Shown: positions 693 through 51,480 of the stretch, piece after piece
Position numbering within the stretch: the first letter of the stretch is position 1
Layout of the letters: each line of letters opens with the position of its first letter
Origin: Chloroflexota bacterium
GTDB taxonomy: Bacteria; Chloroflexota; Anaerolineae; Anaerolineales; DRMV01
Assembly: GCA_011322445.1 (NCBI GenBank)
Contig: DRMV01000033.1
Coordinates: 97,560 to 161,559 of the forward strand
Direction of reading: 5' to 3'
DNA: 64,000 bases
The notes under the pieces: model-generated
Databases searched by the model: none
What the model was told of the DNA's origin: nothing
Seen by the model: the letters and a program-made list of their open reading frames with translations, nothing else
Translations under genes and position numbers: made by a program

Positions 693-3600
693 ATGCTTCT
701 TCCCCTTTTGACCGCCTCACCGTCACTGCGCGCCGTGGCCGAAGCCCTGCGGGCGGGCGCCCCCATCCCCGGCACGGTGGAAAGCCCCACCGCGCCGCCC
801 AACCTCGCGCTGCCCCGCGCCGCGCGCCTGCCGGTGGCGGTGGCGCTGTGGAAGGCGTTGGGGGTTCCCGTGGTCTGGCTGACCCACCGTGCCGACTACC
901 TGCTGCTCGCCCGGCGGGAACTCAGCCTGTGGCTGCCCGAAGCCGAGGCCGCCGACCTGCTGACCTTCCCCGAACCGCCCAGTCCCTTCGACCCGCCCGA
1001 ACGGTGGGACGAGCGCACCCGCACCGAGCGGCTGCAGGCGTTGAGCGCGCTGGCGGCCCATTTCGTGCCCGCCGCCGCCCGCCAAACACCCCTCATCCTC
1101 ACCACCGCTCGCGCCCTGCTGCCGCCCCTGCTGCCCCGCCGCGACTTCCTCAAAGCCGCCCGCCGCCTGAAACCCGGCCAGCGCCTCAACCCCACCGCCT
1201 TAGCGCGCGATCTGGTCACCCTGGGCTACGAACCCGTCACCACCGTCACCGCCTGCGGCCAGTTCGCCCGCCGCGGCGGCCTGCTGGATTTCTGGCCGCC
1301 CACCTCCCCCCACCCCATCCGCCTAGATTTCTTCGGCGACGAACTGGAAACCCTGCGCGCCTTCGACCCCGCCACCCAGCGCACCACCAAGCGCCTGCCC
1401 GCCGTCTTGCTGGCCCCGGCGCGAGAATCTCCCGGGGAAATGCCAACCACTACAACCCTGTTGGATTATCTCCCCCCCCGCTCGGTGGTGTTGTTCGACG
1501 ACTGGGACGCGCTGCAAACGGCGTGGGAAAAAGCACACCACGAAGCCCGCGCCCTGGAAAACGCCGCCGACCGCATCGTGCCCCCCGAAAGGCTGGCCTC
1601 CTTAGAAGCCTTCCCCGCGGCGGTACGGCGGCTGGCGTTGGGCCCCGCCGGTGCAGGCAGCGCCCTGCCCCCCGACGCCCTTGCGCTCGCCTTCCAGCCC
1701 GAAGAACGCTACGGCGGGCAGGTGCGCCCCTTCCTTGAAGCCGTCCACGCCCTGCTGCAGCGTGGGGAACAGGTCTTCATCGTCTCCCGCCAGACGCCCC
1801 GCCTGCGGGAACTGTGGCAGGAGGAATTTGCGGGGAAATTGCCCCCCGCGGGTGCAGATCTCTCCCCACCCCCACCGCCTGCGGCGGTATCCCCCTCCCC
1901 TCCCTTAGTAAGGGAGGGGAGGGGGACAGGGGGAGGGGTGGGATCCACCCCCACCTTCGTCGAAAGCGCGCTGGGCGGCGGTTTCGCCTTCCGCACGCCC
2001 CAGGCCACGGTGCACCTTTTCACCGACGCCGAAATTTTCGGCTGGCGCCCCCCGAAGGTGCGCCGCCGCCCCCGCCCCCAGCCCCGGCCCCCCGAAGCCG
2101 CCTACGCCGACCTGCAGCCGGGCGACTATGTCGTGCATGTTGACCACGGCATCGGGCGCTTCGCGGGCATCGTGCGCCGCACCTTGGAAGGCAAAACCCG
2201 CGACTACCTGCTCGTGGAATACGCCGAGGGCGACCAACTCTTCGTGCCCATCCACCAGGCCGACCGCCTGACCCGCTACATCGGCCCCACCGACCGCCCG
2301 CCTTCCATCACCCGCTTAGGCAGCGGCGACTGGCAGCGCACCAAAAGCCGCGTGCGGGAAGCCGTGCAGCAGATGGCCGAGGAACTGCTGGAACTCTACG
2401 CCCGCCGCAACCTCGCCCAGGGGCACGCCTTTGCCCCCGATTCCGATTGGCAGCGCGAACTGGAAGCCGCCTTCCCCTACCTGGAAACCGAAGACCAGCG
2501 CAAGGCCATCGAGGCCGTCAAGCGCGACATGGAAAGCCCCCGCCCGATGGACAGGCTGATCTGCGGCGACGTCGGCTATGGCAAAACCGAGGTCGCGCTG
2601 CGGGCAGCCTTCAAGGCCGTGATGGATAGCAAGCAGGTCGCCATGTTGGTGCCCACCACGGTGCTCGCCCAGCAGCACTACCGCACGTTCCGCCGCCGCC
2701 TGGCCGCCTTCCCCGTGGTGGTGGAAATGCTTTCCCGCTTCCGCACCCCCGCCGAGCAGCGCAGCATCTTGCAACGCCTCGCCCGCGGCGAAATCGACAT
2801 CATCATCGGCACCCACCGCCTGCTTTCCGGCGACGTCCAGTTCAAAGACCTCGGCCTGGTCATCATCGACGAAGAGCAGCGCTTCGGCGTGGCGCACAAA
2901 GAGCACTTCAAGCGCCTGCGCACAGCGGTGGATGTGCTCACCCTGACCGCCACGCCCATCCCCCGCACCCTTTACATGGCGCTCACCGGCGTGCGCGACA
3001 TTTCGGTCATCGAAACCCCGCCCGCCGCCCGCCTGCCGGTCATCACCCACGTCGGGCCTTACGACCCCGAACTGGTGCGGCGCGCCATTCTGCGGGAACT
3101 CGACCGCGGCGGGCAGGTGTTCTTCGTGCACAACCGCGTCCAGACCATCCAGGCCATGCGCCGCCACCTGGAACGCTTAGTGCCGGAAGCCCGCATTGCA
3201 GTGGGGCACGGCCAGATGCCCGAAAAGCAACTTGCCGAGGTGATGGAAGCCTTTGCCAACGGCGAAGTGGACGTGCTCTTGAGCACCACCATCATCGAAT
3301 CGGGGCTGGACTTCCCCAACGCGAACACCCTCATCGTGGACCGCGCCGATGCCTTCGGCCTGGCGCAACTTTACCAGCTGCGCGGGCGGGTGGGGCGCGG
3401 GCCGGTGCAGGCTTACGCCTATTTCTTCCGCCACCGCAGCAAAGCCCCCACCGAAGAAGGCCGCCTGCGGCTGGAAACCTTAGCCGAACACACCGCCTTA
3501 GGCGCGGGCTACGCCATCGCAATGCGCGACCTGGAAATGCGCGGTGCGGGCGAAATTTTGGGCACCCGCCAGCACGGGCACATGGCCGCGGTGGGCTTCC

Positions 3601-4142
3601 ACCTTTACACCCGCCTGTTAGCCGAAGCCGTGCGCCGCCTGCGGGAAAGCCGCGGCCTGCCCGCGGAAGGCGGTTTTGGCGAAGCCGAAGCCGCGCTGGC
3701 TGCGATGCCCAGCCCGGTGAGCGTGGAACTGCCCCTGGAAGTCAGCCTGCCGCCGGAATACATCCCCGACGAGGGCACCCGCCTGGCGCTCTACCGCCGC
3801 CTAGCCGAAATCCGCAGCACCGAAGCCCTGGAAGCCCTCGCCGCCGAACTGGAAGACCGCTTTGGCCCCCTGCCGCCGCCCGCGGCCAACCTGCTCTACC
3901 AGATGCGGGTGAAACTGCTGGCCGAGCGGGCAGGCATCGCCGCGGTGCGCACCGACAGCGGGCAGGTCGTGCTGCAGCCGCCGCCCCCACCCGCAGGGCA
4001 AAAACGCCCCCTGCCCCCCTTACCCCCGCCCTGGCGCACCGGCAGCCGCGCCTACTGGCTGCCCCTGCGGGAGGGGTGGCAGGAGGAAGTCATCAAAGGG
4101 CTGGAAATGCTGGGAAAGTCGGATAGTCGGATAGTCAGATAG
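693..4142 (+). CDS. mfd: Transcription-repair coupling factor
   Basis: UvrB-like N-terminus, CarD/RID ([14 protein letters not shown]), [31 protein letters not shown] motif ([13 protein letters not shown]), TRCF C-terminus. Confidence 0.97.
1857..1945. repeat. GATC-bounded palindromic element inserted in-frame in mfd (copy 1)
   Basis: 35-bp core CCCCCTCCCCTCCCTTAGTAAGGGAGGGGAGGGGG (1891-1925) identical to 18151-18185; side hairpin CCGCC-TGC-GGCGG. Confidence 0.9.
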
Positions 4143-4228
4143 TCGGGAAGTCGGGAAGTCGGATAGTCGGGTGGTCAGGGAGTCGGGAAGTCGGATAGTC
4201 GGGTGGTCGGGTGGTCAGGGAGTCGGGA
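4117..4228 (+). repeat. 14-unit 8-mer tandem array (AGTCGGAT/AGTCGGGA/AGTCGGGT/GGTCAGGG)
   Basis: Exact period 8; supplies the mfd TAG stop (4140-4142). Confidence 0.95.
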
Positions 4229-13601: not shown

Positions 13602-13692
13602 TTGCTTGGTTACTTCGTTGCCTAGTGACCTGGTTGCCTGGTGATGGAACAAACCAAGTAACCAGGTCACTCATCGACCAGGTAACTAACCG
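13602..13692. repeat. Inverted pair of 8-mer arrays (TTGCCTGG-type x5 / ACCAGGTA-type x5)
   Basis: Period-8 units facing each other across a ~10-nt spacer; contains the thiolase stop. Confidence 0.85.
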
Positions 13693-16265: not shown

Positions 16266-19200
16266 ATGACTCAAGACTACCTCTTCCGCGGTTCTCTCAA
16301 AGACCTTGACCCCGCCCTGTACGAACTCACCCAGGTGGAAGCCGAGCGGCAGGTGCGGCGGCTGATTCTCATCCCCAGCGAGAGCCAGGCGCCTTTGGCC
16401 GTGCGCGAGGCCATGGCCTCGGCCTTCCAGAACATTTACGCTGAAGGCTACCCACCGGAGCACTGGCGCTGGCTGAGCGATGAGGAAATTCTGGATTACA
16501 AAGCCCGCTTAGCCGAATACCGCCGCCTGGCCGACCCGCGCTATTACAAGGGCGTGGAATACGCCGACATCGTGGAATCCTTAGCCCGCCGCCGCTGTGC
16601 GGAGGCTTTCGCGGCCAACGGCGTGAGTGCGGATGACATTTTCGTCAACGTCCAGCCCCTCTCCGGCGCACCGGCCAACAACGCGGTCTATCACGCCCTC
16701 ATCCAGCCCGGCGACACCATCCTTTCCATGCACCTCGTCCACGGCGGGCACCTCTCCCACGGCTCGCGCGCCAACCGCACGGGCAAACTTTACAATCCGG
16801 TGCACTACACGGTGGACCCGGAAACCGAGCGCCTGGATTACGACCAGATCGAAGCCCTGGCGCTGGAACACAAGCCCAAAATCATCGTCGCGGGCTATTC
16901 GTCCTATCCGTGGAGTGTGGATTGGGCGCGCTTCCGCGCCATTGCCGACAAAGTGGGCGCGTATTTGATGGCCGACATCGCCCACGTCGCGGGGCTGGTA
17001 GTCGGCGGGGCGTACCCCTCGCCCGTAGGCTATGCTCACGTCATCTCTTTCACCACCCACAAGACCCTCGGCGGCCCCCGCGGGGCGGTCATTCTCACCA
17101 CCAATCCCGTGATTGCCCGCAAGATCGACCGCGCCGTGTTCCCCGGCGAGCAGGGCGGGCCGCATGTCAATGTTTTCGCTGCTTTAGCCCTGCTGTTCAA
17201 ACTGGCGCAGACCGAGCAGTTCAGCCAGTATGCCCATCAGGTGGTGAAAAACTGCATCGCTTTCACCGACCGTCTGGCCGAGCGGGGTTTCCGCATCCCC
17301 TACGGCGGCACCGACACCCACCTGATGAACCTGGACTGCAAGAGCGTGCGCGGCCCCGACGGAACGCCCCTTTCCGGCGACCTGGCCGCCCGCATTCTGG
17401 ATGTGGCCGGCATCGTGGTCAACCGCAACACCATCCCCGGCGACAAGGGCGCGAAGAACCCCTCGGGCATCCGCATGGGCACGCCCTGGCTGACCCAGCG
17501 GGGCTTCGACGAGGCCATGAGCCGCGAACTGGCCGATGTCATCGCCGACCTGCTCTGGGCCGTCACGCCCTACACCGTGGACGGCAAGCAGCGCGCCAAG
17601 GTGGATTACGACGCCCTGCAGGAAGCCCGCCTGCGGGTGCGCGACCTGGCCGAGCGCGCCGGCCGGGATTTCGAGCCCCAGGGCTTCGGCTACCCCCACT
17701 TCTACTATGCCGATGATAAACCCCAGCGTGCGGGCGACCTCACGGTGCTGGAAATCGGCGGCGAGCGGGTGCGCCAGTTCCTCAATTTTGCCCTGGCCTC
17801 GGATGTGGAAGCCCTGGAACCCGGCCAGACGCAGCCTACCCGCCTGCACACCCCCAAAGGCTGGGTACAGGGCACGCTGCGCTGTGTGGAACCCCGCCGC
17901 TTCCGCCTGACCGTGCCGCGCGAGCAGGCTTCCCTGGTGATGACCTACCTGCGCGACCTCTCCGATGGCTACATTGCCTTTGGCGATGACGACCTCACGC
18001 GCAAAATCCCCGGCCCGGTGTGGGTGCTGGAAGCCCTGGATGGGGAACCCGACGCGCTGCCCCAGGGGGAGGTGCAGCCTGCAGAGAGCAAGCCGTACTT
18101 CGTGGGTCTGGATCTCACCCCTCCCCCGCCGCAGCCTTCGGCTGCAGTCTCCCCCTCCCCTCCCTTAGTAAGGGAGGGGAGGGGGGCGGGGGGTGGGGAG
18201 AGATCCCTCCCTGCCTTCCAATGGGAAGAAACCGAACCCGAAACCCTGCGCCGCACGCCCATTTACGACCTGCACAAGCGTTTGGGCGCGAAGATGGTGC
18301 CCTTCGCGGGCTGGGAAATGCCGGTGTGGTACTCCTCGGTGCTGGAAGAGCACCTCGCGGTGCGCGAGGCCGCCGGCCTGTTCGACGTCACCCACATGGG
18401 CGTGTATCAGGTGGAAGGCCCGGACGCTGCCGCCTTCCTGGACAGCGTGTACGCCAACGACATCGGCAAACTCAAGGTGGGCGAGGCGGAATACACCCAC
18501 TTCCTCACCCCCGACGCCGAGGTGATCGACGACCTGTATGTGTACCGCTACGAGCCGGAAGCCTATCTGGTGGTGGTCAACGCTGCCAACGACGAGAAGG
18601 ACTGGGCCTGGCTGAACGCGGTCAGGGAAGGCAAGGTGAAGGTGGATAATGCACGCCCGTGGGCGCAGGCCTTTGGCCGGAGCGCGGTGCTGCGCAACCT
18701 GCGCGATCCCAAAGAAGGCGCGGACATGCGGGTGGATTTAGCCCTGCAGGGGCCGCGCTCGCGGGATGTGCTGCTGGCCCTGGGCGTGGATGCCGCCACC
18801 GAGCGCCGCATCCGCCGGATGAAGCGCAACCATGTGATTCGTGCCACCGTGGGCGGCTTCGACCTCATCGTCTCGCGCACGGGCTACACGGGCGAAAAGA
18901 TGGCTTTCGAACTCTTCGTGCACCCCGACCGGGCAGCGGACCTCTTCGTAGCGCTGCTCAAGGCCGGCGAACCCTTCGGCCTCAAGCCGTGCGGGCTGGG
19001 CGCGCGCGATTCGCTGCGCACCGAGGCCGGGCTGCCCCTCTACGGCCACGAGATGGGCGGCACGCTCAATTTGGGCGTGGGCGAGGCCGGTTTCGCCAGG
19101 TTCGTCAAGACCTACAAGCCGTGGTTCATCGGCCGCGAGGCCTTCCTGGCCCGCGAGGCCACGCGGCAGCAGGAAATCGTGCGCTTCCGCTTCACCGACA

Positions 19201-19472
19201 GGCACGTCCGCATGGCGCACCTCGGCGACCCGGTGCTCGACAAGCGCGGCAAGGTGATCGGCGTGGTGACCAGTTGCGCCATCGACCGGGAAGGCTACCT
19301 GACCGGGCAGGCGGTGGTGCTGCGCAAGTACACTGCTGAGGGCACACCGCTGTTCATCCTGCAAGGCGCCGAGCGGCTGAAGAAAGCCCCCAAAGCCCCC
19401 GCCGAACTGCAACCGGGCGACAGCCTGCCCCTGCCCACCGCGGCGGTGGTGGTGAGGCGGTTCCCGAAATAG
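16266..19472 (+). CDS. glyA-gcvT: Fused serine hydroxymethyltransferase / glycine cleavage aminomethyltransferase
   Basis: LIPSE, NVQPLSG, GGHLSHG, TTHKTLGGPRG (PLP Lys), then LRRTPIY, FAGWEMP, GLFDVTHMG, SRTGYTGE, LGARDSLRTEAG; start ATG 16266 after GGAG. Confidence 0.95.
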   Translation: MTQDYLFRGSLKDLDPALYELTQVEAERQVRRLILIPSESQAPLAVREAMASAFQNIYAEGYPPEHWRWLSDEEILDYKARLAEYRRLADPRYYKGVEYADIVESLARRRCAEAFAANGVSADDIFVNVQPLSGAPANNAVYHALIQPGDTILSMHLVHGGHLSHGSRANRTGKLYNPVHYTVDPETERLDYDQIEALALEHKPKIIVAGYSSYPWSVDWARFRAIADKVGAYLMADIAHVAGLVVGGAYPSPVGYAHVISFTTHKTLGGPRGAVILTTNPVIARKIDRAVFPGEQGGPHVNVFAALALLFKLAQTEQFSQYAHQVVKNCIAFTDRLAERGFRIPYGGTDTHLMNLDCKSVRGPDGTPLSGDLAARILDVAGIVVNRNTIPGDKGAKNPSGIRMGTPWLTQRGFDEAMSRELADVIADLLWAVTPYTVDGKQRAKVDYDALQEARLRVRDLAERAGRDFEPQGFGYPHFYYADDKPQRAGDLTVLEIGGERVRQFLNFALASDVEALEPGQTQPTRLHTPKGWVQGTLRCVEPRRFRLTVPREQASLVMTYLRDLSDGYIAFGDDDLTRKIPGPVWVLEALDGEPDALPQGEVQPAESKPYFVGLDLTPPPPQPSAAVSPSPPLVREGRGAGGGERSLPAFQWEETEPETLRRTPIYDLHKRLGAKMVPFAGWEMPVWYSSVLEEHLAVREAAGLFDVTHMGVYQVEGPDAAAFLDSVYANDIGKLKVGEAEYTHFLTPDAEVIDDLYVYRYEPEAYLVVVNAANDEKDWAWLNAVREGKVKVDNARPWAQAFGRSAVLRNLRDPKEGADMRVDLALQGPRSRDVLLALGVDAATERRIRRMKRNHVIRATVGGFDLIVSRTGYTGEKMAFELFVHPDRAADLFVALLKAGEPFGLKPCGLGARDSLRTEAGLPLYGHEMGGTLNLGVGEAGFARFVKTYKPWFIGREAFLAREATRQQEIVRFRFTDRHVRMAHLGDPVLDKRGKVIGVVTSCAIDREGYLTGQAVVLRKYTAEGTPLFILQGAERLKKAPKAPAELQPGDSLPLPTAAVVVRRFPK
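18111..18205. repeat. GATC-bounded palindromic element inserted in-frame in glyA-gcvT (copy 2)
   Basis: Same 35-bp core (18151-18185); side hairpin GCAGCC-TTC-GGCTGC. Confidence 0.9.
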
Positions 19473-27088: not shown

Positions 27089-28060
27089 ATGTTCCAACTG
27101 AACATCGGCGGCTCGGAACAAGCCGACACCAACAAAATCTACGACCTCATCGTGGTCGGTGCTGGCGCCGCCGGCCTGACCTCGGCCATCTATGCTTCAC
27201 GCGATGGCTGGGAAACACTGGTGCTGGAAAAGGAAGCCACCGGCGGCCTGGCTGCCACCACGCATCTCATCGAAAACTACCCTGGCTTCCCCGAAGGCAT
27301 CGACGGCTCGGAACTGATGGAAAAATTCGTCGAGCAGGCCAAACGCTTTGGAGCCAAAATCGTCGAATTCGAAGAAGTCACCAGCCTGACGAAAAACGAC
27401 GAAGGCATCTTCGAAATTGCCACCACGGGCGCGACCTACAAAGGCCGCGCGGTCATCCTCGCCACCGGCAGCCGCCCCAAACACCTGGGCATCCCCGGCG
27501 AGGAAGAATTCGCCAACAAGGGCGTCTCCTACTGCGCCACCTGCGACGGCCCGCTCTTCAAAGGGCAGGATGTCGTGGTCATCGGTTGCGGCAACTCCGG
27601 CCTGCAGGAAGCCCAAATTCTGCTGGAATATGCCAAATCGGTCACTTTCGTGGAATTCCTGCCCTACTCCATTGCCGAAAAAGTGCTCCAAGAGCGCGTC
27701 GTCAACCACCCCAAAGTCAAGTGCTACTTCTCACACATGGCCGTGGAAATCAAAGGCGATGACTTCGTCAACGCCATCGTGGTCAAAGACCGCGAAACCG
27801 GCGAGTTGAAGGAAATCCCCACCCAGGGCGTCTTCGTCTACGTCGGCTACCAGCCTTACACCGATTTCGTGAAAGGCGTGGTAGACCTCGACGAGCGCGG
27901 CTACATCGTCACCGACGCCCACATGCACACCAACATCCCCGGCGTGTTTGCGGCAGGCGACGTGCGTTCTGGCAACCTGGCCCAGGTGGCCGTGGCCGTG
28001 GGCGACGGTGCCAAAGCCGCCATCGCCGTGCGCGAATACCTGCAGGCGCAAAACAAATAA
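27089..28060 (+). CDS. trxB: Thioredoxin reductase paralog 1 (AhpF-like NADH-type nucleotide site)
   Basis: GAGAAG FAD motif, CATCDG, GCGNSG, VEFLP in place of HRR. Confidence 0.88.
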   Translation: MFQLNIGGSEQADTNKIYDLIVVGAGAAGLTSAIYASRDGWETLVLEKEATGGLAATTHLIENYPGFPEGIDGSELMEKFVEQAKRFGAKIVEFEEVTSLTKNDEGIFEIATTGATYKGRAVILATGSRPKHLGIPGEEEFANKGVSYCATCDGPLFKGQDVVVIGCGNSGLQEAQILLEYAKSVTFVEFLPYSIAEKVLQERVVNHPKVKCYFSHMAVEIKGDDFVNAIVVKDRETGELKEIPTQGVFVYVGYQPYTDFVKGVVDLDERGYIVTDAHMHTNIPGVFAAGDVRSGNLAQVAVAVGDGAKAAIAVREYLQAQNK

Positions 28061-28104
28061 TGTCCCACCGGGCGAGGCCTCAGGCTTCGCCCGTATGAAT
28101 TCCT

Positions 28105-29040
28105 ATGAGCGAAAGCACCCACACCCCCCTGCTAATTTTAGGCGCGGGCCCCGCGGGGCTGGCCGCGGCGCTTTACGCGGCGCGCGCCGACCTGCAGCCC
28201 ATCGTCCTCACCGGCCCGGAACTTGGCGGCCAGGTTTCCATCACCTACATCGTCGAAAACTACCCCGGCTTCCCCGAAGGTGTGGAAGGCCCCGACTTGG
28301 TGACCCGCTTCAAAGAGCAGGCCGAAAAATTCGGCGCGCGCCTGGTGCTCGACACCGCCACCGCGGTGGACTTCCGCCAGCGCCCCTTCCGCATCCGCAC
28401 CACCAAAACCGAATACACCGCCGACACGGTCATCATCGCCACCGGTGCCACGGCCAAGCAATTGGAAATTCCCGGCGAAGACGAACTCATCGGCATGGGC
28501 GTTTCTTACTGCGCCACCTGCGACGGACACTTCTTCAAAGGCATGGACATCATGGTGGTGGGCGGCGGTGACAGCGCCCTGGAAGAAGCCCTCTTCCTCA
28601 CCCGCTACGCCAACAGTGTGACCATCGTCCATCGCCGCGAGGCATTGCGCGCCGGCCCACTGCTGCAAAAGCGCGCCCGCAACCACCCCAAAATTCGCTT
28701 CCTGATGGAAACCATCGTCACCGAAATCTTAGGCGACGAGATGGTCGAGGGCGTGCGCCTGCAACACCTGCCCAGCGGCGAAGAGCGAGAGCACCCCATC
28801 GCGGGCGTGTTCATCTTCATCGGCTACCACCCCAACACCGACCTGTTCGAAGGGCAAATCACCTTAGACGAACGCGGCTATATCGCCGTTGACAAACACA
28901 TGCACACCAACATCCCCGGCGTGTTTGCCGCGGGCGAAGTGGCCGACAGCCGCTATCGCCAGGTGATTACCTCGGCAGGCATGGGTGCAGCCGCGGCGAT
29001 GGAGGCAATTCATTTTCTGGAAAACCAAGGGCTTCCCTGA
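28105..29040 (+). CDS. trxB: Thioredoxin reductase paralog 2 (canonical NADPH type)
   Basis: GAGPAG, CATCDG, GGGDSA, VHRREALR. Confidence 0.95.
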   Translation: MSESTHTPLLILGAGPAGLAAALYAARADLQPIVLTGPELGGQVSITYIVENYPGFPEGVEGPDLVTRFKEQAEKFGARLVLDTATAVDFRQRPFRIRTTKTEYTADTVIIATGATAKQLEIPGEDELIGMGVSYCATCDGHFFKGMDIMVVGGGDSALEEALFLTRYANSVTIVHRREALRAGPLLQKRARNHPKIRFLMETIVTEILGDEMVEGVRLQHLPSGEEREHPIAGVFIFIGYHPNTDLFEGQITLDERGYIAVDKHMHTNIPGVFAAGEVADSRYRQVITSAGMGAAAAMEAIHFLENQGLP

Positions 29041-38391: not shown

Positions 38392-39329
38392 AACCCTCCG
38401 GTTGGTTGGAAACCCTGAGTTACCTCGGCTTCACCGTCTTGTGGATTGCAGGCGCTCTCGGCGGGCTGTGGACGGTCAAAGCCGAAGATAGCATTCCGCG
38501 GCAAGGCAACGAGGCCAGCCAGCCGCGACAGGTCGTGCTGTTCAGCACCCCTATTCCGTTCCCCACGCTGGCCCCCACCGCCGCTGCAGGAGCGAAAGCC
38601 ACACCGGCCCCCACGGCAACACCATCGTGTCATCCCCCGAAAGGCTGGCATGCCATCACCATCGCCGCGGGCGAAACGCTGAAAACCCTTGCCGCCCGCT
38701 ATCACACCACCGCGGGTGCGCTGCAAAAAGCCAACTGCCTGCCCGCACCGGCATTAGTGGCCGGGACCACGCTGTTCGTGCCGTCGCGCCCCACCGCCAC
38801 ACCTCCGCCGCACCCCACCGCCACGGCGCCAGCCTGCGGCCCTCTCCCCGGCTGGGTAGAACACACCGTCCAGCCCGGCGAAAACCTGTACCGTATCAGT
38901 TTGGCCTACCGGGTCAGCATCGCACTGCTGTTGCGCGCCAACTGCCTGCCCGGCACCCTCATCTATGCGGGGGAACGCCTTTGGGTCCCCAATGTGCCCA
39001 CCAGCACCCCGGCGTGGACGGCTACCGCCGTCGCCACCCCTACCCTCACTCCCACAGCCACTCCGACGGCCGTTGCCACCGCCACCCCTACGGCCTCGGC
39101 CACCGCGGCGGCTTCCCCCACCTCCACCGCCACCCCTACGCCAACAGCCACCGGTCCTACGCCCACGCCAACATCCACACCTACCCCCACGGCGACCGCA
39201 ACGCCCACACCCACCCCCACCGCCACCAACACACCGCTGCCGCCGACCTCCACCCCCACCCCCTCGCCGACCAATACCCCCGTGCCGCCGACCAATACGC
39301 CCACGCCCACTCCCACCCCTACCCCCTGA
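38388..39329 (+). CDS. Two-LysM peptidoglycan-binding protein with Pro/Thr tail
   Basis: Two repeats (H.IAAGETL..LA.RY / HTVQPGENLYRISLAY...NCL), long PT repeats. Confidence 0.88.
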   Translation: MKPSGWLETLSYLGFTVLWIAGALGGLWTVKAEDSIPRQGNEASQPRQVVLFSTPIPFPTLAPTAAAGAKATPAPTATPSCHPPKGWHAITIAAGETLKTLAARYHTTAGALQKANCLPAPALVAGTTLFVPSRPTATPPPHPTATAPACGPLPGWVEHTVQPGENLYRISLAYRVSIALLLRANCLPGTLIYAGERLWVPNVPTSTPAWTATAVATPTLTPTATPTAVATATPTASATAAASPTSTATPTPTATGPTPTPTSTPTPTATATPTPTPTATNTPLPPTSTPTPSPTNTPVPPTNTPTPTPTPTP

Positions 39330-39333
39330 TACC

Positions 39334-40392
39334 ATGCGCCTTCGCGCTCCCGTCCCGCCTCTCATTCGCCTGCTCTTCGCACTGGCAGCCCTGGCCATCG
39401 GGGGAATGCTGCTCCTCGGGGGCTGCAGGCTGCCCGGGTTTTCACCAGCGGGCCGCGCCACGGCATGGCCCATGACAGCCACCTGGACCCCCTTCGCCCC
39501 TCTTCCGCCCACAGCCACCTATTTACCCACCAGCACCCCCACACCCACCCCCACCCCTACGCCACCCCCTCCCCCCACCCCGCGGCCCACACCCCCCCCC
39601 AAAGGCTACCTCGGCCAACCCGTGCCGCCGCTGCCCCAGGCCCAAGGGCGCATCAACATCATGCTGCTGGGGTCTGATCGACGCCCCGACCACGTCGACT
39701 TCCGCACCGACGCTTTCATGCTGCTTTCCTACAACCCCAAAACCGGGGCCACCAGTATCATTTCCTTCCCGCGCGACACCTTTGTGTATCTTCCCGGCGT
39801 GGGCTACAACCGCATCAACACAGCGATGGAATTCGGCGGCTTCCCGCTGGTGCAGCGCACGCTGGAATACAACTTCGGCATCCGGCCTTCCCACTACATT
39901 CTGGTTGAATTTCGAGGCTTTGCTACCCTCATCGACCAGTTGGGGGGTGTTGACGTCGTCGTGCCCCACCAGTTATGCGACCGCCGCACCCATTACGGCG
40001 ACCACTATTGCGTCGGGCCGGGCACGGTTCACATGGATGGCAGCCTGGCCCTGTGGTATGCGCGCTCGCGCATCACCACCAGCGATTTCGACCGTGCCCA
40101 TCGCCAGCAGGCGCTGATTGTGGCCGTCATCCACAAACTGCTTTCCCTCAACGCCCTCGGCCAGGCGCCTTCCCTTTATCGCACTTACCGCCAAAGCGTG
40201 GAAACCGACATCAGCCTGGCGGCCTTCCTGAAAATGGTGGCCCAGGCGCGCCGTTTCCGCAGCGACGCCATCCGCGCCTACGTCATCCAGCCGCCCGCGC
40301 TGCAGCCGTGGATTACACCTCAGGGGGCTTATGTGCTGCTTCCACACCACGACGCCGTGCGCAGCATTTTAGAAACCGCACTCTCGCGGTAA
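39334..40392 (+). CDS. LCP (LytR-CpsA-Psr) family protein
   Basis: INIMLLGSD, RTDAFML, SFPRD, RINTA, YARSR, SDFDRAHRQQ. Confidence 0.93.
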   Translation: MRLRAPVPPLIRLLFALAALAIGGMLLLGGCRLPGFSPAGRATAWPMTATWTPFAPLPPTATYLPTSTPTPTPTPTPPPPPTPRPTPPPKGYLGQPVPPLPQAQGRINIMLLGSDRRPDHVDFRTDAFMLLSYNPKTGATSIISFPRDTFVYLPGVGYNRINTAMEFGGFPLVQRTLEYNFGIRPSHYILVEFRGFATLIDQLGGVDVVVPHQLCDRRTHYGDHYCVGPGTVHMDGSLALWYARSRITTSDFDRAHRQQALIVAVIHKLLSLNALGQAPSLYRTYRQSVETDISLAAFLKMVAQARRFRSDAIRAYVIQPPALQPWITPQGAYVLLPHHDAVRSILETALSR

Positions 40393-45091: not shown

Positions 45092-47524
45092 ATGAACACC
45101 CCTAACCTGCTGCAACGAATGGGCAATGCCATTGTTCGTTTCGTGAACCGTCTGGCCACACCCTCACCCCATCTGAGCGATCCGGAAGACCGTCTGCGCG
45201 CCCGCACCCTCGCCTTCACCAGCATCGGCACGTTGGTCGTCATCATCCTGCCAGCCATCCTTCGTGTCACCCTTTGGAACACCCCTCAACCTATTCGCTG
45301 GTATGTCTATTTCACCACGCTGGCTGTGCTGGCGGCCTATTCCCTCAGCCGCACACGCCGTTACCGGTGGGGGCTATACCTGACTGTTCTCACCTACAGT
45401 CTTGGCTCCGTCGTCATCAGCCTGAGCACCCCCGACCTCTCCGAAAGCACCTACGTGCTCACAGCAGCATGGAACCTGGGCGCTATCATCATCGCGGGTT
45501 TGTTGCTTTCCCGACGGCAGTTCCTGCGCGTCATCGCCGTCAACGTCTTCCTGCTGAGCATTCCCAGTCTGGCCGGGCGGGCGCCATGGGGCTGGTACGG
45601 CGATATGACCCTGGTCTTTCTGGCCGAAGCCGCTCTCCTCTTCGGCATTGCCGGTGCAAGCCAGCGGCACGCCCACGAGATGGCAAAAAGCGAGCAGCGT
45701 TTTCGAGAGCTCCTCAACAGCACCCTGGAAGCCCTGGTCATCCACGATGGTGTCCACATTCTGGCCGTCAACCCGGCCTTCGAAAGGATGTTCCGCTGCC
45801 CCGAGGAACAAGCCGTTGGCCGCGTCCCAATGGAATTCGTCGCCCCCGAAGCCCGCGATGCAGCCTGGGAAGCCTTCCTGAAAAACTTCGACAAACCCAA
45901 TGCCATCATTCGCTCCACGGCATTGCGTTGCGATGGCACCCGCTTCGAAGCCGAAGCCAGCCTTGGTATGGTTACCTACGAAAGGCAAAGCGTCCTGGCT
46001 TTGAGCGTGCGCGACGTCTCCCGGCGTGTAGCCGCCGAAGCCGAACTGCGCAAACTTTCCCGAGCGCTGGAACAAAGCGCCCATGGGGTGGTCATCACCA
46101 ATCCGCAAGGGGTGATCGAGTACGTCAACCCGGCTTTCACCCAAATGACCGGCTACACCGCCAAAGAAGCCATCGGGCAAACGCCTCGCATCCTCAAGTC
46201 GGGCAAACACCCCACCGAGTTCTATGCCGAGCTGTGGGAAACCATCCGCAGCGGGGAAACATGGCAAGGCGAAGTCGTCAACCGTCGCAAAGACGGCACC
46301 CTCTACTGGGAATCCCAAACCATCACTCCTGTCTTCAACGAAGACGGCAAAATTACCCACTACGTCGCCATCAAGCAAGACATCACTAAACGCAAAGAAA
46401 ACGAAGAAAAAATCCGAAAACTGCAACGCGCCATCGAGCAAAGTGCCCACAGCGTGGTCATCACCGACCGCACCGGCACCATCGAATACGTCAACCCCGC
46501 GTTCACGCAAGTCACGGGTTACACCGCCGAAGAAGCCATCGGGCAAAATCCTCGCATTCTCAAGTCGGGCAAACACCCTCGCACCTTCTACCAACACCTC
46601 TGGAACACCATCCAGCGCGGCGAAATCTGGCACGGCGAGTTCATCAACCGCCGCAAAGACGGCAGCCTCTACTGGGAACGCGCCAGCATCTCCCCCGTCA
46701 AAGACGACGACGGCCACATCACCCACTTCGTAGCCGTCAAAGAAGACATTACCCAACAAAAAGAACTGGAAGCGGAACTCCAACGCGCTCGCGACGAAGC
46801 CCTGGAAGCCAACAGGCTCAAAACCCAATTGCTCGGCAACGTCAGCCACGACATGCGCACCCCTTTGGGCGGCATCCTCGGGTATAGCGAAATGCTGCTC
46901 GAAGGCGCCTTGGGCGAACTTTCCTCCGAGCAACGCAAAGCCATTCTTCACATCCTGCAAAGCACCCAGCAACTCATTGACTTTACCAACGACCTGCTCA
47001 ACCAGGCCGAACTGGAAAGCGGCCGCCTGCGCCTGCACATCACCAAATTCCCGCCGCACGAACTGCTCAAAACCATCTCGGCAACGCAATCGATTGCCGA
47101 AGCCAAGGGCGTGCACGTCCACATTGAAACCGACCCCAACCTTCCCGAAACCATCTACGGCGATCCCTATTGGCTGCGTCAAATCCTCGCCAACCTGTTG
47201 GGAAACGCGGTAAAATTTACAGAAGAGGGGCACATTTGGGTGCGGTTGCTGGGGCTGGAAGACGAGCACTGGGCCATCCAGGTCGAAGACACCGGCGTCG
47301 GCATTCCCCTCGAAGCCCAAAAACACATCTTTGAACCCTTCCGCCAGGTGGACGGGAGCCCCACGCGCCGTTACAAAGGCTCGGGCCTGGGGCTTTCCAT
47401 CGTGAAACAGTTGGTCGATCTCATGCACGGCGAAATTCGGCTGGAAAGCGAGCCCGGCAAAGGCAGCAAATTCACAGTCATCCTTCCCTGTCAGTCCACG
47501 CTCACCGAGGAGCAAGCCCCATGA
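45092..47524 (+). CDS. Membrane PAS x3 sensor histidine kinase
   Basis: TM N-terminus, three PAS/PAC repeats, SHDMRTPL, NLLGNAVKF, DTGVGI, GSGLGL. Confidence 0.95.
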   Translation: MNTPNLLQRMGNAIVRFVNRLATPSPHLSDPEDRLRARTLAFTSIGTLVVIILPAILRVTLWNTPQPIRWYVYFTTLAVLAAYSLSRTRRYRWGLYLTVLTYSLGSVVISLSTPDLSESTYVLTAAWNLGAIIIAGLLLSRRQFLRVIAVNVFLLSIPSLAGRAPWGWYGDMTLVFLAEAALLFGIAGASQRHAHEMAKSEQRFRELLNSTLEALVIHDGVHILAVNPAFERMFRCPEEQAVGRVPMEFVAPEARDAAWEAFLKNFDKPNAIIRSTALRCDGTRFEAEASLGMVTYERQSVLALSVRDVSRRVAAEAELRKLSRALEQSAHGVVITNPQGVIEYVNPAFTQMTGYTAKEAIGQTPRILKSGKHPTEFYAELWETIRSGETWQGEVVNRRKDGTLYWESQTITPVFNEDGKITHYVAIKQDITKRKENEEKIRKLQRAIEQSAHSVVITDRTGTIEYVNPAFTQVTGYTAEEAIGQNPRILKSGKHPRTFYQHLWNTIQRGEIWHGEFINRRKDGSLYWERASISPVKDDDGHITHFVAVKEDITQQKELEAELQRARDEALEANRLKTQLLGNVSHDMRTPLGGILGYSEMLLEGALGELSSEQRKAILHILQSTQQLIDFTNDLLNQAELESGRLRLHITKFPPHELLKTISATQSIAEAKGVHVHIETDPNLPETIYGDPYWLRQILANLLGNAVKFTEEGHIWVRLLGLEDEHWAIQVEDTGVGIPLEAQKHIFEPFRQVDGSPTRRYKGSGLGLSIVKQLVDLMHGEIRLESEPGKGSKFTVILPCQSTLTEEQAP

Positions 47525-51394: not shown

Positions 51395-51400
51395 GGAGTT

Positions 51401-51480
51401 AGTCCTGTAGTCGGGTGGTCAGGTAGTCGGGTAGTCGGGTAGTCAGGTGGTCAGGTAGTCGAGTGGTCGCGTCGTCGGGA
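51401..51480. repeat. 10-unit 8-mer array (AGTCGGGT/GGTCAGGT)
   Basis: Period 8; same family as 4117-4228; between ttuB and ttuA. Confidence 0.92.

Follow-up and report, generated by a model that had tools for sequence, protein, structure and literature searches.

A stretch of 64,000 nucleotides from a Chloroflexota bacterium of the order Anaerolineales (assembly GCA_011322445.1, contig DRMV01000033.1, positions 97,560 to 161,559 of the forward strand), referred to here as the window, carries two copies of a small palindromic element, each of them in frame within a housekeeping gene. The first host gene (positions 693-4142, plus strand) encodes the transcription-repair coupling factor Mfd of 1149 amino acids with the domains UvrB_inter, RID, DEAD, Helicase_C and TRCF, and the second (positions 16266-19472, plus strand) encodes a fusion of serine hydroxymethyltransferase (SHMT) and the aminomethyltransferase GcvT of 1068 amino acids with SHMT and GCV_T domains. 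A preliminary description of the window regarded the repeat as a structure-conserved mobile element without a transposase that was donating a peptide module to proteins. The explanation that we consider probable is a mobile nested palindrome which is conserved as DNA, yields its peptide as a by-product and has a candidate partner in the nuclease family DUF559.

Element copies and host genes

Copy 1 (positions 1857-1945) occupies residues 389-418 of Mfd and measures 89 bp from GATC to GATC, or 87 bp from ATCTC to GAGAT; copy 2 (positions 18111-18205) occupies residues 616-647 of the SHMT-GcvT fusion, with corresponding lengths of 95 bp and 93 bp. Both share a layout of a 17-nt C-rich arm, a copy-specific GC hairpin, the core, three bases and a 17-nt G-rich arm, and both are translated through in the frame of the host. 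The core, CCCCCTCCCCTCCCTTA-G-TAAGGGAGGGGAGGGGG, is a perfect 35-bp palindrome with 17-bp arms and a central G, which is identical at positions 1891-1925 and 18151-18185 and occurs nowhere else in the window; no match of this kind is expected by chance (100 shuffles). The left outer arm of copy 1 (1857-1873, plus strand; GATCTC-T-CCCC-A-CCCCC) is followed by the variable side hairpin (1874-1888, plus strand; ACCGCC-TGC-GGCGGT), and its right outer arm (1929-1945, plus strand; GGGGG-A-GGGG-T-GGGATC) pairs with the left arm save for T.T and A.A mismatches. The corresponding parts of copy 2 are the left outer arm (18111-18127, plus strand; GATCTC-A-CCCC-T-CCCCC), the side hairpin (18131-18145, plus strand; GCAGCC-TTC-GGCTGC) and the right outer arm (18189-18205, plus strand; GGGGG-T-GGGG-A-GAGATC). 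The outer arms are swapped between the copies: reverse-complementing the right arm of copy 2 gives the left arm of copy 1 (17/17 bases). One of the plus-strand frames reads TAG TAA at the centre of the element. The preliminary description had reported the repeated palindrome, the GATC-bounded lengths, the in-frame reading, the unlike side hairpins (CCGCC-TGC-GGCGG and GCAGCC-TTC-GGCTGC), the exchanged arms and the central TAG-TAA, and in all of these points it was correct.

As single strands both copies fold into an outer stem with a side hairpin and a core hairpin, with DNA fold z-scores of -7.8 and -8.4 that none of 200 shuffles reached; the RNA adopts the same shape at -74 to -81 kcal/mol. 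A search of Rfam with the window and five loci gave only tRNAs at the gathering score. A profile search, with a profile built from 17 relatives, found the two copies only, and the 9.3 kb to the left of the window contain no further copy and no DUF559. With terminal inverted repeats, a length below 500 bp and no open reading frame of its own the element has the loose attributes of a miniature inverted-repeat transposable element (MITE), apart from a target-site duplication. The window matches a hydrothermal-vent metagenome contig (ENA ERZ940665, run SRR4453772), and the sole difference noticed in the compared parts of the two assemblies lies within the right arm of copy 1, where position 1939 is T in the window and G in the ENA contig (L048), which changes V to G in the Mfd insert.

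The assumed position of both inserts in inter-domain linkers is supported. The Mfd insert falls between UvrB_inter (residues 159-245) and RID (474-530), and an AlphaFold2 model computed with 42 homologues predicts residues 382-416 as coil without secondary structure and with a predicted local distance difference test score (pLDDT) below 50; the helix before this stretch (368-379) and the strand after it (421-423) reach a pLDDT of about 90. The insert of SHMT-GcvT falls between the SHMT domain, which ends at residue 426, and the GCV_T domain, which starts at residue 667. This fusion is widespread in Anaerolineae. The fused protein has about 1040-1070 amino acids, and a search gave thousands of full-length relatives, mainly from Anaerolineae/Chloroflexota, which are named inconsistently as GcvT or SHMT.

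Orthologous sites

Alleles without the element, which the preliminary description had suggested looking for, were found among close and distant orthologues. At the Mfd site the element is confined to the closest relatives (related loci are given here by L numbers). The Mfd gene of L049 (87% amino acid identity) has identical flanks and the same length of 89 bp, with the whole element inverted and the side hairpin on the opposite side. In L051 (77%) two copies of the element and a different palindrome stand in tandem, and in L052 (90%) the site of the element is taken by an unrelated palindrome of nearly the same length (CTCCCCTCTCCCCC..GGGAGAGGGG..). L053 and more than 50 further Mfd orthologues have a short variable loop only and no insert. 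At the SHMT-GcvT site the element is present only in the window, in L054 (90%) and in L018; the latter two copies are flipped and are therefore read in another frame, as DLTPPPNPLPSL[GS]KGGEG... Orthologues of 86-90% identity (e.g. L055 and L056) and all those of 73% or less lack the element and have linkers of 9-14 residues. L054 and L051 derive from one metagenome-assembled genome (MAG), GCA_054020095.1; GCA_054041595.1 and JALUXH01 are further MAGs with the element.

The element ends in ATCTC...GAGAT, usually within G...C, and the lengths of 87 and 93 bp fit an insertion without duplication. Judged by the arm markers, inversion of the whole element requires three differences and inversion of the inner part only requires five at the Mfd site, and at the SHMT-GcvT site the two are tied, so that the markers do not decide between them. 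The orthologous sites show a family that has apparently been gained, lost and flipped over a short evolutionary time in a hydrothermal Anaerolineales lineage. The element behaves as a non-autonomous mobile element of the kind of MITEs, repetitive extragenic palindromes (REPs) or Rickettsia palindromic elements (RPEs).

The different palindromes at the Mfd site form a second family (L052:11140-11260 and L051:11245-11290; CTCCCCTCTCCCCC..GGGAGAGGGGC[CT]GGGG.TGAGGGC, read as ..LPSPPGRGAGDEG..), which in the Mfd gene of L051 sits between the two copies of the element. This second palindrome type, CTCTCCC...GGGAGAG, has no copy in the window.

Distribution

A scan of one genome per species found the exact 23-bp core at 47 loci. 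A metagenome scan, run with a stricter form of the core pattern, added 11 loci; these stem from a single sample set of the Joint Genome Institute (JGI), and several of them lie on the contigs of the MAG loci. In Anaerolineales assemblies the architecture of the element is that of the window. In-frame hosts in this order are UvrA (two or three copies), a GlyQ-GlyS fusion, a PolX-like HhH protein, a thiamine pyrophosphate enzyme, Maf (two genomes) and a class I/II aminotransferase (two genomes); further copies lie at the edge of an APH kinase gene and of an ABC ATPase gene, and about eight are without a supported gene and apparently intergenic. In some copies the core has a variable hairpin on either side. 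The window copies belong to this family of small non-coding nested-palindrome repeats, which is built of arms of the type ATCTC-W-CCCC-W-CCCCC with their complement, the fixed 35-bp core hairpin and one or two variable GC junction hairpins.

Beyond Anaerolineales the core is found in at least five phylum-level groups. With shorter C/G-tract arms the 23-bp core occurs in Dehalococcoidia, Chlorobiaceae, Bacteroidota, Patescibacteria and delta-proteobacterial MAGs, and a Chlorobiaceae MAG has a compact version of 55 nt that keeps the GATC ends. In these groups nearly all cores are intergenic; residence within genes is therefore peculiar to the GC-rich Anaerolineales lineage. Viral contigs gave two core matches, which represent one locus, and three relatives of DUF559, one of them with nearby palindromes and none with this core. 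A protein database search with the two encoded peptides joined returned 201 candidates, none of which scored, probably due to low complexity.

The preliminary view of a dispersed and apparently mobile palindrome in unrelated proteins, comparable to RPEs, is supported by the empty sites and by the many other loci, and neither of the conditions that would have spoken against it holds: distant orthologues do not all carry the peptide, and the core is not restricted to the two window sites. The low copy number in the window, and nothing more, favors an assembly chimera or a local gene conversion between these two sites only. The element recurs, however, in assemblies made independently (ENA, NCBI, JGI and Logan), and at least ten other genes carry it; we regard the chance of such an artefact as negligible.

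Conservation of DNA and peptide

In 15 oriented copies the core and the arms are almost invariant and, because of this invariance, show no covariation. The junction spacers are hairpins in 25/25 cases, with 6-19 pairs, mostly a loop of 3 nt and unrelated sequences. The term 'structure-conserved' applies to the side hairpin only; in core and arms it is the sequence that is conserved. Most of 22 copies have A.A or T.T at stem positions 6 and 11, with all four combinations represented, and the other 14 positions pair; in the duplex these two positions are A:T pairs, which disrupt the dyad symmetry. They assort freely with the side on which the hairpin lies, and this fits repeated inversions with different breakpoints.

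The synonymous divergence (dS) of the host genes is 0.34 for Mfd between the window and L049 and 0.49 for SHMT-GcvT between the window and L054, and it reaches about 1.8 between the DUF559 domains borne by UvrA in L027 and L063 (see below). The cores differ at only 0-2 of 35 bases despite different translated frames, and constraint or homogenization must therefore act at the DNA level. Depending on orientation the same DNA yields either of two peptides, SPSPPL[VL]REGRG or PLPSL[ST]KGGEG, and orthologous sites carry either. These two peptides at orthologous sites, together with the predicted disorder of the Mfd segment, speak against the donation of a peptide module; the encoded peptide, which is predicted to be disordered, is a tolerated by-product and not a conserved or donated module.

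Conservation of core and arms well above that of synonymous sites, the position of copies at linkers and the very stable predicted hairpins might also be expected of a structural signal selected by the host, i.e. a cruciform or protein-binding DNA site, or an mRNA hairpin at domain boundaries that acts for instance as a translation pause. Such a signal appears very improbable: most orthologues are without the element, a different palindrome can take the same site, both orientations are tolerated, other phyla have the same core between genes and no Rfam family matches.

Among the 15 intragenic copies with measurable ends (ATCTC to GAGAT) ten are 87 or 93 bp long, i.e. multiples of three, and five have a length of 3n+1; the host frame is open across all 15. 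This bears on the idea that the insert is not translated, the hairpin being removed from or bypassed in the mRNA so that the host proteins remain unchanged. The stability of the RNA hairpin is in its favor, and translational bypass borne by a mobile element is known for gene 60 of phage T4 (bioRxiv 10.1101/2022.08.31.505936). An open host frame in every intragenic copy and lengths that are exact multiples of three in 10/15 would be needless if the segment were skipped, and no bypass signals were seen, though none were looked for; we find this idea hardly credible.

Association with DUF559 genes

DUF559 is a very common bacterial family of 'endonuclease domain-containing' proteins, for which no role is known to us. 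In L027 (the contig of L061) and in L063, UvrA contains an in-frame DUF559 domain (PF04480, E-values 2e-25 and 1.5e-26; L027:7039-7754, equivalent in L061, and L063:12868-13439), which is inserted in the loop before the ...RILRELEARLGF... helix. One complete element lies directly on each side of the domain in both genomes, and upstream in L027 there is a third copy, which has decayed. Within a genome the two flanking copies are near-identical, side hairpin included; between the genomes they differ in side hairpin and orientation, which indicates concerted evolution or separate arrivals. With a ratio of nonsynonymous to synonymous divergence (dN/dS) of about 0.09, at a dS near saturation, the UvrA-borne domain is under purifying selection. 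D64, E75, D77 and H81 are invariant in three DUF559 sequences, and the closest solved relative is the 'endonuclease-like protein' 3HRL of Neisseria (E-value 2.4e-12). Pfam gives only UvrA, ABC, DUF559 and REase_MTES_1575 in the DUF559-bearing UvrA and no Hint splicing domain.

A DUF559-domain search of the loci also matches L003, a Nomurabacteria MAG with 29% GC. Here the 3' end of a free-standing DUF559 gene of 130 amino acids overlaps a nested element, in whose left arm (..TCCACCCC..) the gene ends; this element contains the exact core, its right arm is the matching GGGGTGGA, and its fold has a z-score of -7.1. In L003 as in L027 an arm of the element belongs to the DUF559 reading frame. In some genomes element and nuclease are physically joined. 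Across more than 60 loci DUF559 is the only recurrent neighbor of the core apart from orthologues of the host genes (e.g. Mfd/helicase-like), and no transposase and no RAYT (HUH tyrosine transposase) gene recurs beside it. The preliminary description had proposed to look for a nuclease or transposase gene flanked by the motif; such a gene exists in related genomes as DUF559, and the window has none.

Ten DUF559 genes from plasmid records were inspected for flanking repeats. The gene of Deinococcus proteolyticus is hugged by 56-nt inverted repeats that are 95% complementary, and Deinococcus sp. NW-56 and D. aetherius have DUF559 genes with similar repeats; the repeat of D. aetherius is of the CTCTCCC/GGGAGAG type, the type found at the Mfd site of L052. 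In the sphingomonad Qipengyuania citrea the 35-nt repeats consist of a hairpin, CCCCTCCCGC-TT-GCGGGAGGGG, and an arm, GGGGGTGGG, and a full nested palindrome lies upstream. The inverted repeats of 35-56 nt in these Deinococcus and Qipengyuania plasmids are composed of a C-tract arm and a hairpin of the CCCCTCCC...GGGAGGGG type. Two repeats tested in a sliding-window control scored 20 and 26 against a control maximum of 11, and 0/68 controls reached these scores. C/G-tract palindromes also adjoin the DUF559 genes of Picosynechococcus and Azospirillum.

In three Deinococcus plasmids (L073, L074 and L081) DUF559 lies at three different intergenic places of the hpa (4-hydroxyphenylacetate) cluster, and one of these positions is empty in D. 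proteolyticus, with two overlapping genes and no insert. Empty hpa sites are also present in L077 and L078, and in Deinococcus the sequence beside the repeat gives AAGGAGG before the start codon of the neighboring gene. Repeat modules without the gene occur in related replicons, in 16 sphingomonad and 7 Deinococcus records. In the cyanobacterial plasmids L080 and L075 the DUF559 gene lies beside or within a DUF1156 gene. That of Synechocystis B12 comes after a short DUF1156 fragment and before a long 'hypothetical protein', which suggests that the insertion of DUF559 split the DUF1156 gene.

DUF559 genes are reported to be enriched 14-fold among predicted targets of programmed inversion (PMC9881135). 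Vsr, DUF559 and DUF2726 form one PD-(D/E)XK clade (PMC3424549), which includes the homing endonuclease I-Bth0305I (PMC3239194). A literature search found no paper that ties DUF559 to palindromic repeats.

The claim that the element is 'transposase-less' has become doubtful, as copies flank the in-frame DUF559 of UvrA and DUF559 genes elsewhere have terminal repeats of like design. A small Vsr-like PD-(D/E)xK nuclease of the DUF559 family may be what moves the element, and from the genomic associations we give this partnership slightly less than an even chance. The alternative is a palindrome moved in trans by another enzyme, such as a RAYT/IS200-like tyrosine transposase, another insertion sequence (IS) transposase or host recombination, with DUF559 as a selfish gene that lands in or near palindromes. 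REPs often serve as targets for other insertions, and some are known to lie within repair genes (PMC3733652); the Mfd site is a hotspot with different palindromes in different relatives. This alternative finds no GTAG or CGTC tag in the element and has to accommodate DUF559 as the sole recurrent family beside the core, the arm within the DUF559 reading frame of L003 and L027, and DUF559-flanking repeats of the same arm-plus-hairpin design in three other phyla. We consider it unlikely, though to be reckoned with.

Several observations weigh against a mobile palindrome with DUF559 as its partner, and some of them favor the other-enzyme alternative just described. The window contains neither DUF559 nor a transposase-like gene tied to the element, only three loci join the exact core to DUF559, and four of the ten plasmid DUF559 genes (Photobacterium, Synechocystis, Neisseria and Sphingomonas) have no flanking inverted repeat. 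To our knowledge a Vsr-like nuclease of 113-130 amino acids is not among the established transposases. The copy number is low, with two copies in about 73 kb of this genome and just six exact 23-bp cores in the best-sampled MAG. Movement is deduced from presence and absence and not observed. At both window sites the native linker is replaced and not simply lengthened. For this reason, and because the Deinococcus flanks have diverged, a target-site duplication is not definable at the Mfd and SHMT-GcvT junctions or in the Deinococcus flanks.

Comparison with known elements

Rickettsia provides the best-known cases of in-frame 'selfish DNA' in housekeeping proteins, and some intragenic REPs are a further example. 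The element described here is RPE-like and in its behavior closest to RPEs and intragenic REPs, and it is a member of neither because no conserved peptide, no GTAG/CGTC tag and no RAYT gene were seen. It provides an independent, GC-rich case in Chloroflexota, with clear empty sites, inversions in situ and a hotspot shared by different palindromes.

RPEs (Ogata et al. 2000, 2002) are found in frame in many unrelated housekeeping genes (PMC10969869). The element resembles them as a short palindromic repeat for which no transposase of its own is known, and which lies in frame in unrelated housekeeping genes, adds a peptide where the protein tolerates it and is absent from orthologues. It differs by its occurrence in Chloroflexota, its GC-richness and its length of 87-93 bp, whereas RPEs are AT-rich repeats of about 100-150 bp in Rickettsia. 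It further differs in its nested three-way fold, in which the core is fixed and the side hairpin variable, in having a candidate nuclease partner, and in a peptide that varies with frame and orientation, while RPEs are described as encoding a conserved peptide.

Intragenic REPs occur notably in DNA repair genes, and the stem-loop of REPs has a GTAG or CGTC tag at its foot (Di Nocera et al. 2013, PMC3733652). REP/REPIN-RAYT systems (REPtrons) are alike in their short GC-rich hairpins, in a single gene bracketed by repeats next to many solo copies, and in copies within repair genes, here Mfd, UvrA and the PolX-like protein. In contrast, the GTAG/CGTC tag and its complements are absent from both window copies, the bracketed gene is a Vsr-like PD-(D/E)xK nuclease (DUF559) and not a HUH tyrosine transposase, and most copies of this lineage are intragenic.

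MITEs such as Nezha, Correia/NEMIS and ERIC share with the element terminal inverted repeats, a small size and the lack of coding capacity, and both may have arisen by internal deletion from a larger element that carried a gene. No target-site duplication and no IS with a classical transposase and the same ends were detected, however, and instead of having simple inverted repeats at its ends the element is a nested palindrome throughout. Vsr-like (EDxHD) homing endonucleases, e.g. I-Bth0305I, are comparable as Vsr-fold nucleases that act as selfish elements in host genes, a role that may also apply to the DUF559 domain in frame in UvrA. The UvrA-borne domain differs in that neither an intron nor an intein surrounds it and that palindromic repeats stand on both sides of it. 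Palindromic amphipathic repeat coding elements (PARCELs) are likewise coding DNA with dyad symmetry, horizontally spread and shuffled within genomes, but they form tandem amphipathic repeats of 25 residues with a conserved motif in surface proteins, while the present element is a single insert without a conserved peptide.

Proposed mechanism

No target duplication was detected, and insertion may therefore be blunt or driven by recombination. The C- and G-tracts leave two of the three frames open in either orientation, and the peptides read from these frames are rich in Pro, Ser and Gly, with predicted disorder; variable surface loops and inter-domain linkers would therefore tolerate copies of 87 or 93 bp. 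Selection or homogenization acts on the DNA of the element, with the peptide as a by-product. Recombination or nuclease-triggered gene conversion between copies, with the inverted arms serving as homology, could account for whole-element inversions at orthologous sites and the swapped arm markers, for the exchange of side hairpins between copies and for a conservation far above that of synonymous sites. In its autonomous form the element would be a DUF559 gene bracketed by arm-plus-hairpin repeats, and the solo elements of the window would be derivatives without the gene.

Tentatively, and with some doubt, this picture can be extended to other phyla, where DUF559 nucleases and C-/G-tract nested palindromes could represent an unrecognized class of mobile elements. 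The autonomous unit would then be a nuclease gene of about 115-130 amino acids bracketed by arm-plus-hairpin repeats, from which the gene-less palindromes would be derived, and both forms would have adapted to coding sequences in the hot-vent Anaerolineales. Palindromes that double as flexible Pro/Gly linkers might allow DUF559 to be in frame in UvrA without an intein, and the A.A/T.T mismatches of the extruded stem could be recognized by a mismatch-type nuclease.

The findings imply that protein linkers can be remodeled by DNA that is selected for reasons unrelated to the peptide, and they are a warning for annotation and structure prediction, since such Pro/Gly segments derive from repeats. 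The link to DUF559 offers a testable answer to the role of this family and a candidate enzyme for palindromic repeats without an enzyme; if true, the partnership would be a new kind of element-enzyme pair.

Additional features of the window

Arrays of 8-bp units (AGTCGGGT and variants) with 9-14 copies are located at positions 4113-4228 and 51400-51479. The first of these covers the last codons and the stop codon of mfd and encodes the tail of the protein. An imperfect inverted repeat of 37 nt at positions 13606-13689 consists of short-period sequence resembling the 8-bp arrays. A further inverted repeat at the 3' end of mfd (3985/4063) was considered as an insertion and rejected, since it is conserved protein-coding sequence. 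Positions 39052-39601 contain a long low-complexity coding stretch rich in Pro, Thr and Ala, with periodicities of 24 and 45 bp, which is C-rich and not related to the element.

A nuclease-like gene of 132 amino acids (PDDEXK_3, PF13366; L085:6833-7231) separates gatB from gatA some 3 kb to the left of where the window begins. L051 has this gene too, and the 90%-identical L052 has a gap of about 490 bp without a called gene at this place; it may be another small mobile nuclease gene. Two diverged tandem duplications, at positions 27437-28941 (period 977 bp, 71-84% identity) and 46036-46780 (period 366 bp, 70-76% identity), are probably paralogous genes or domains.

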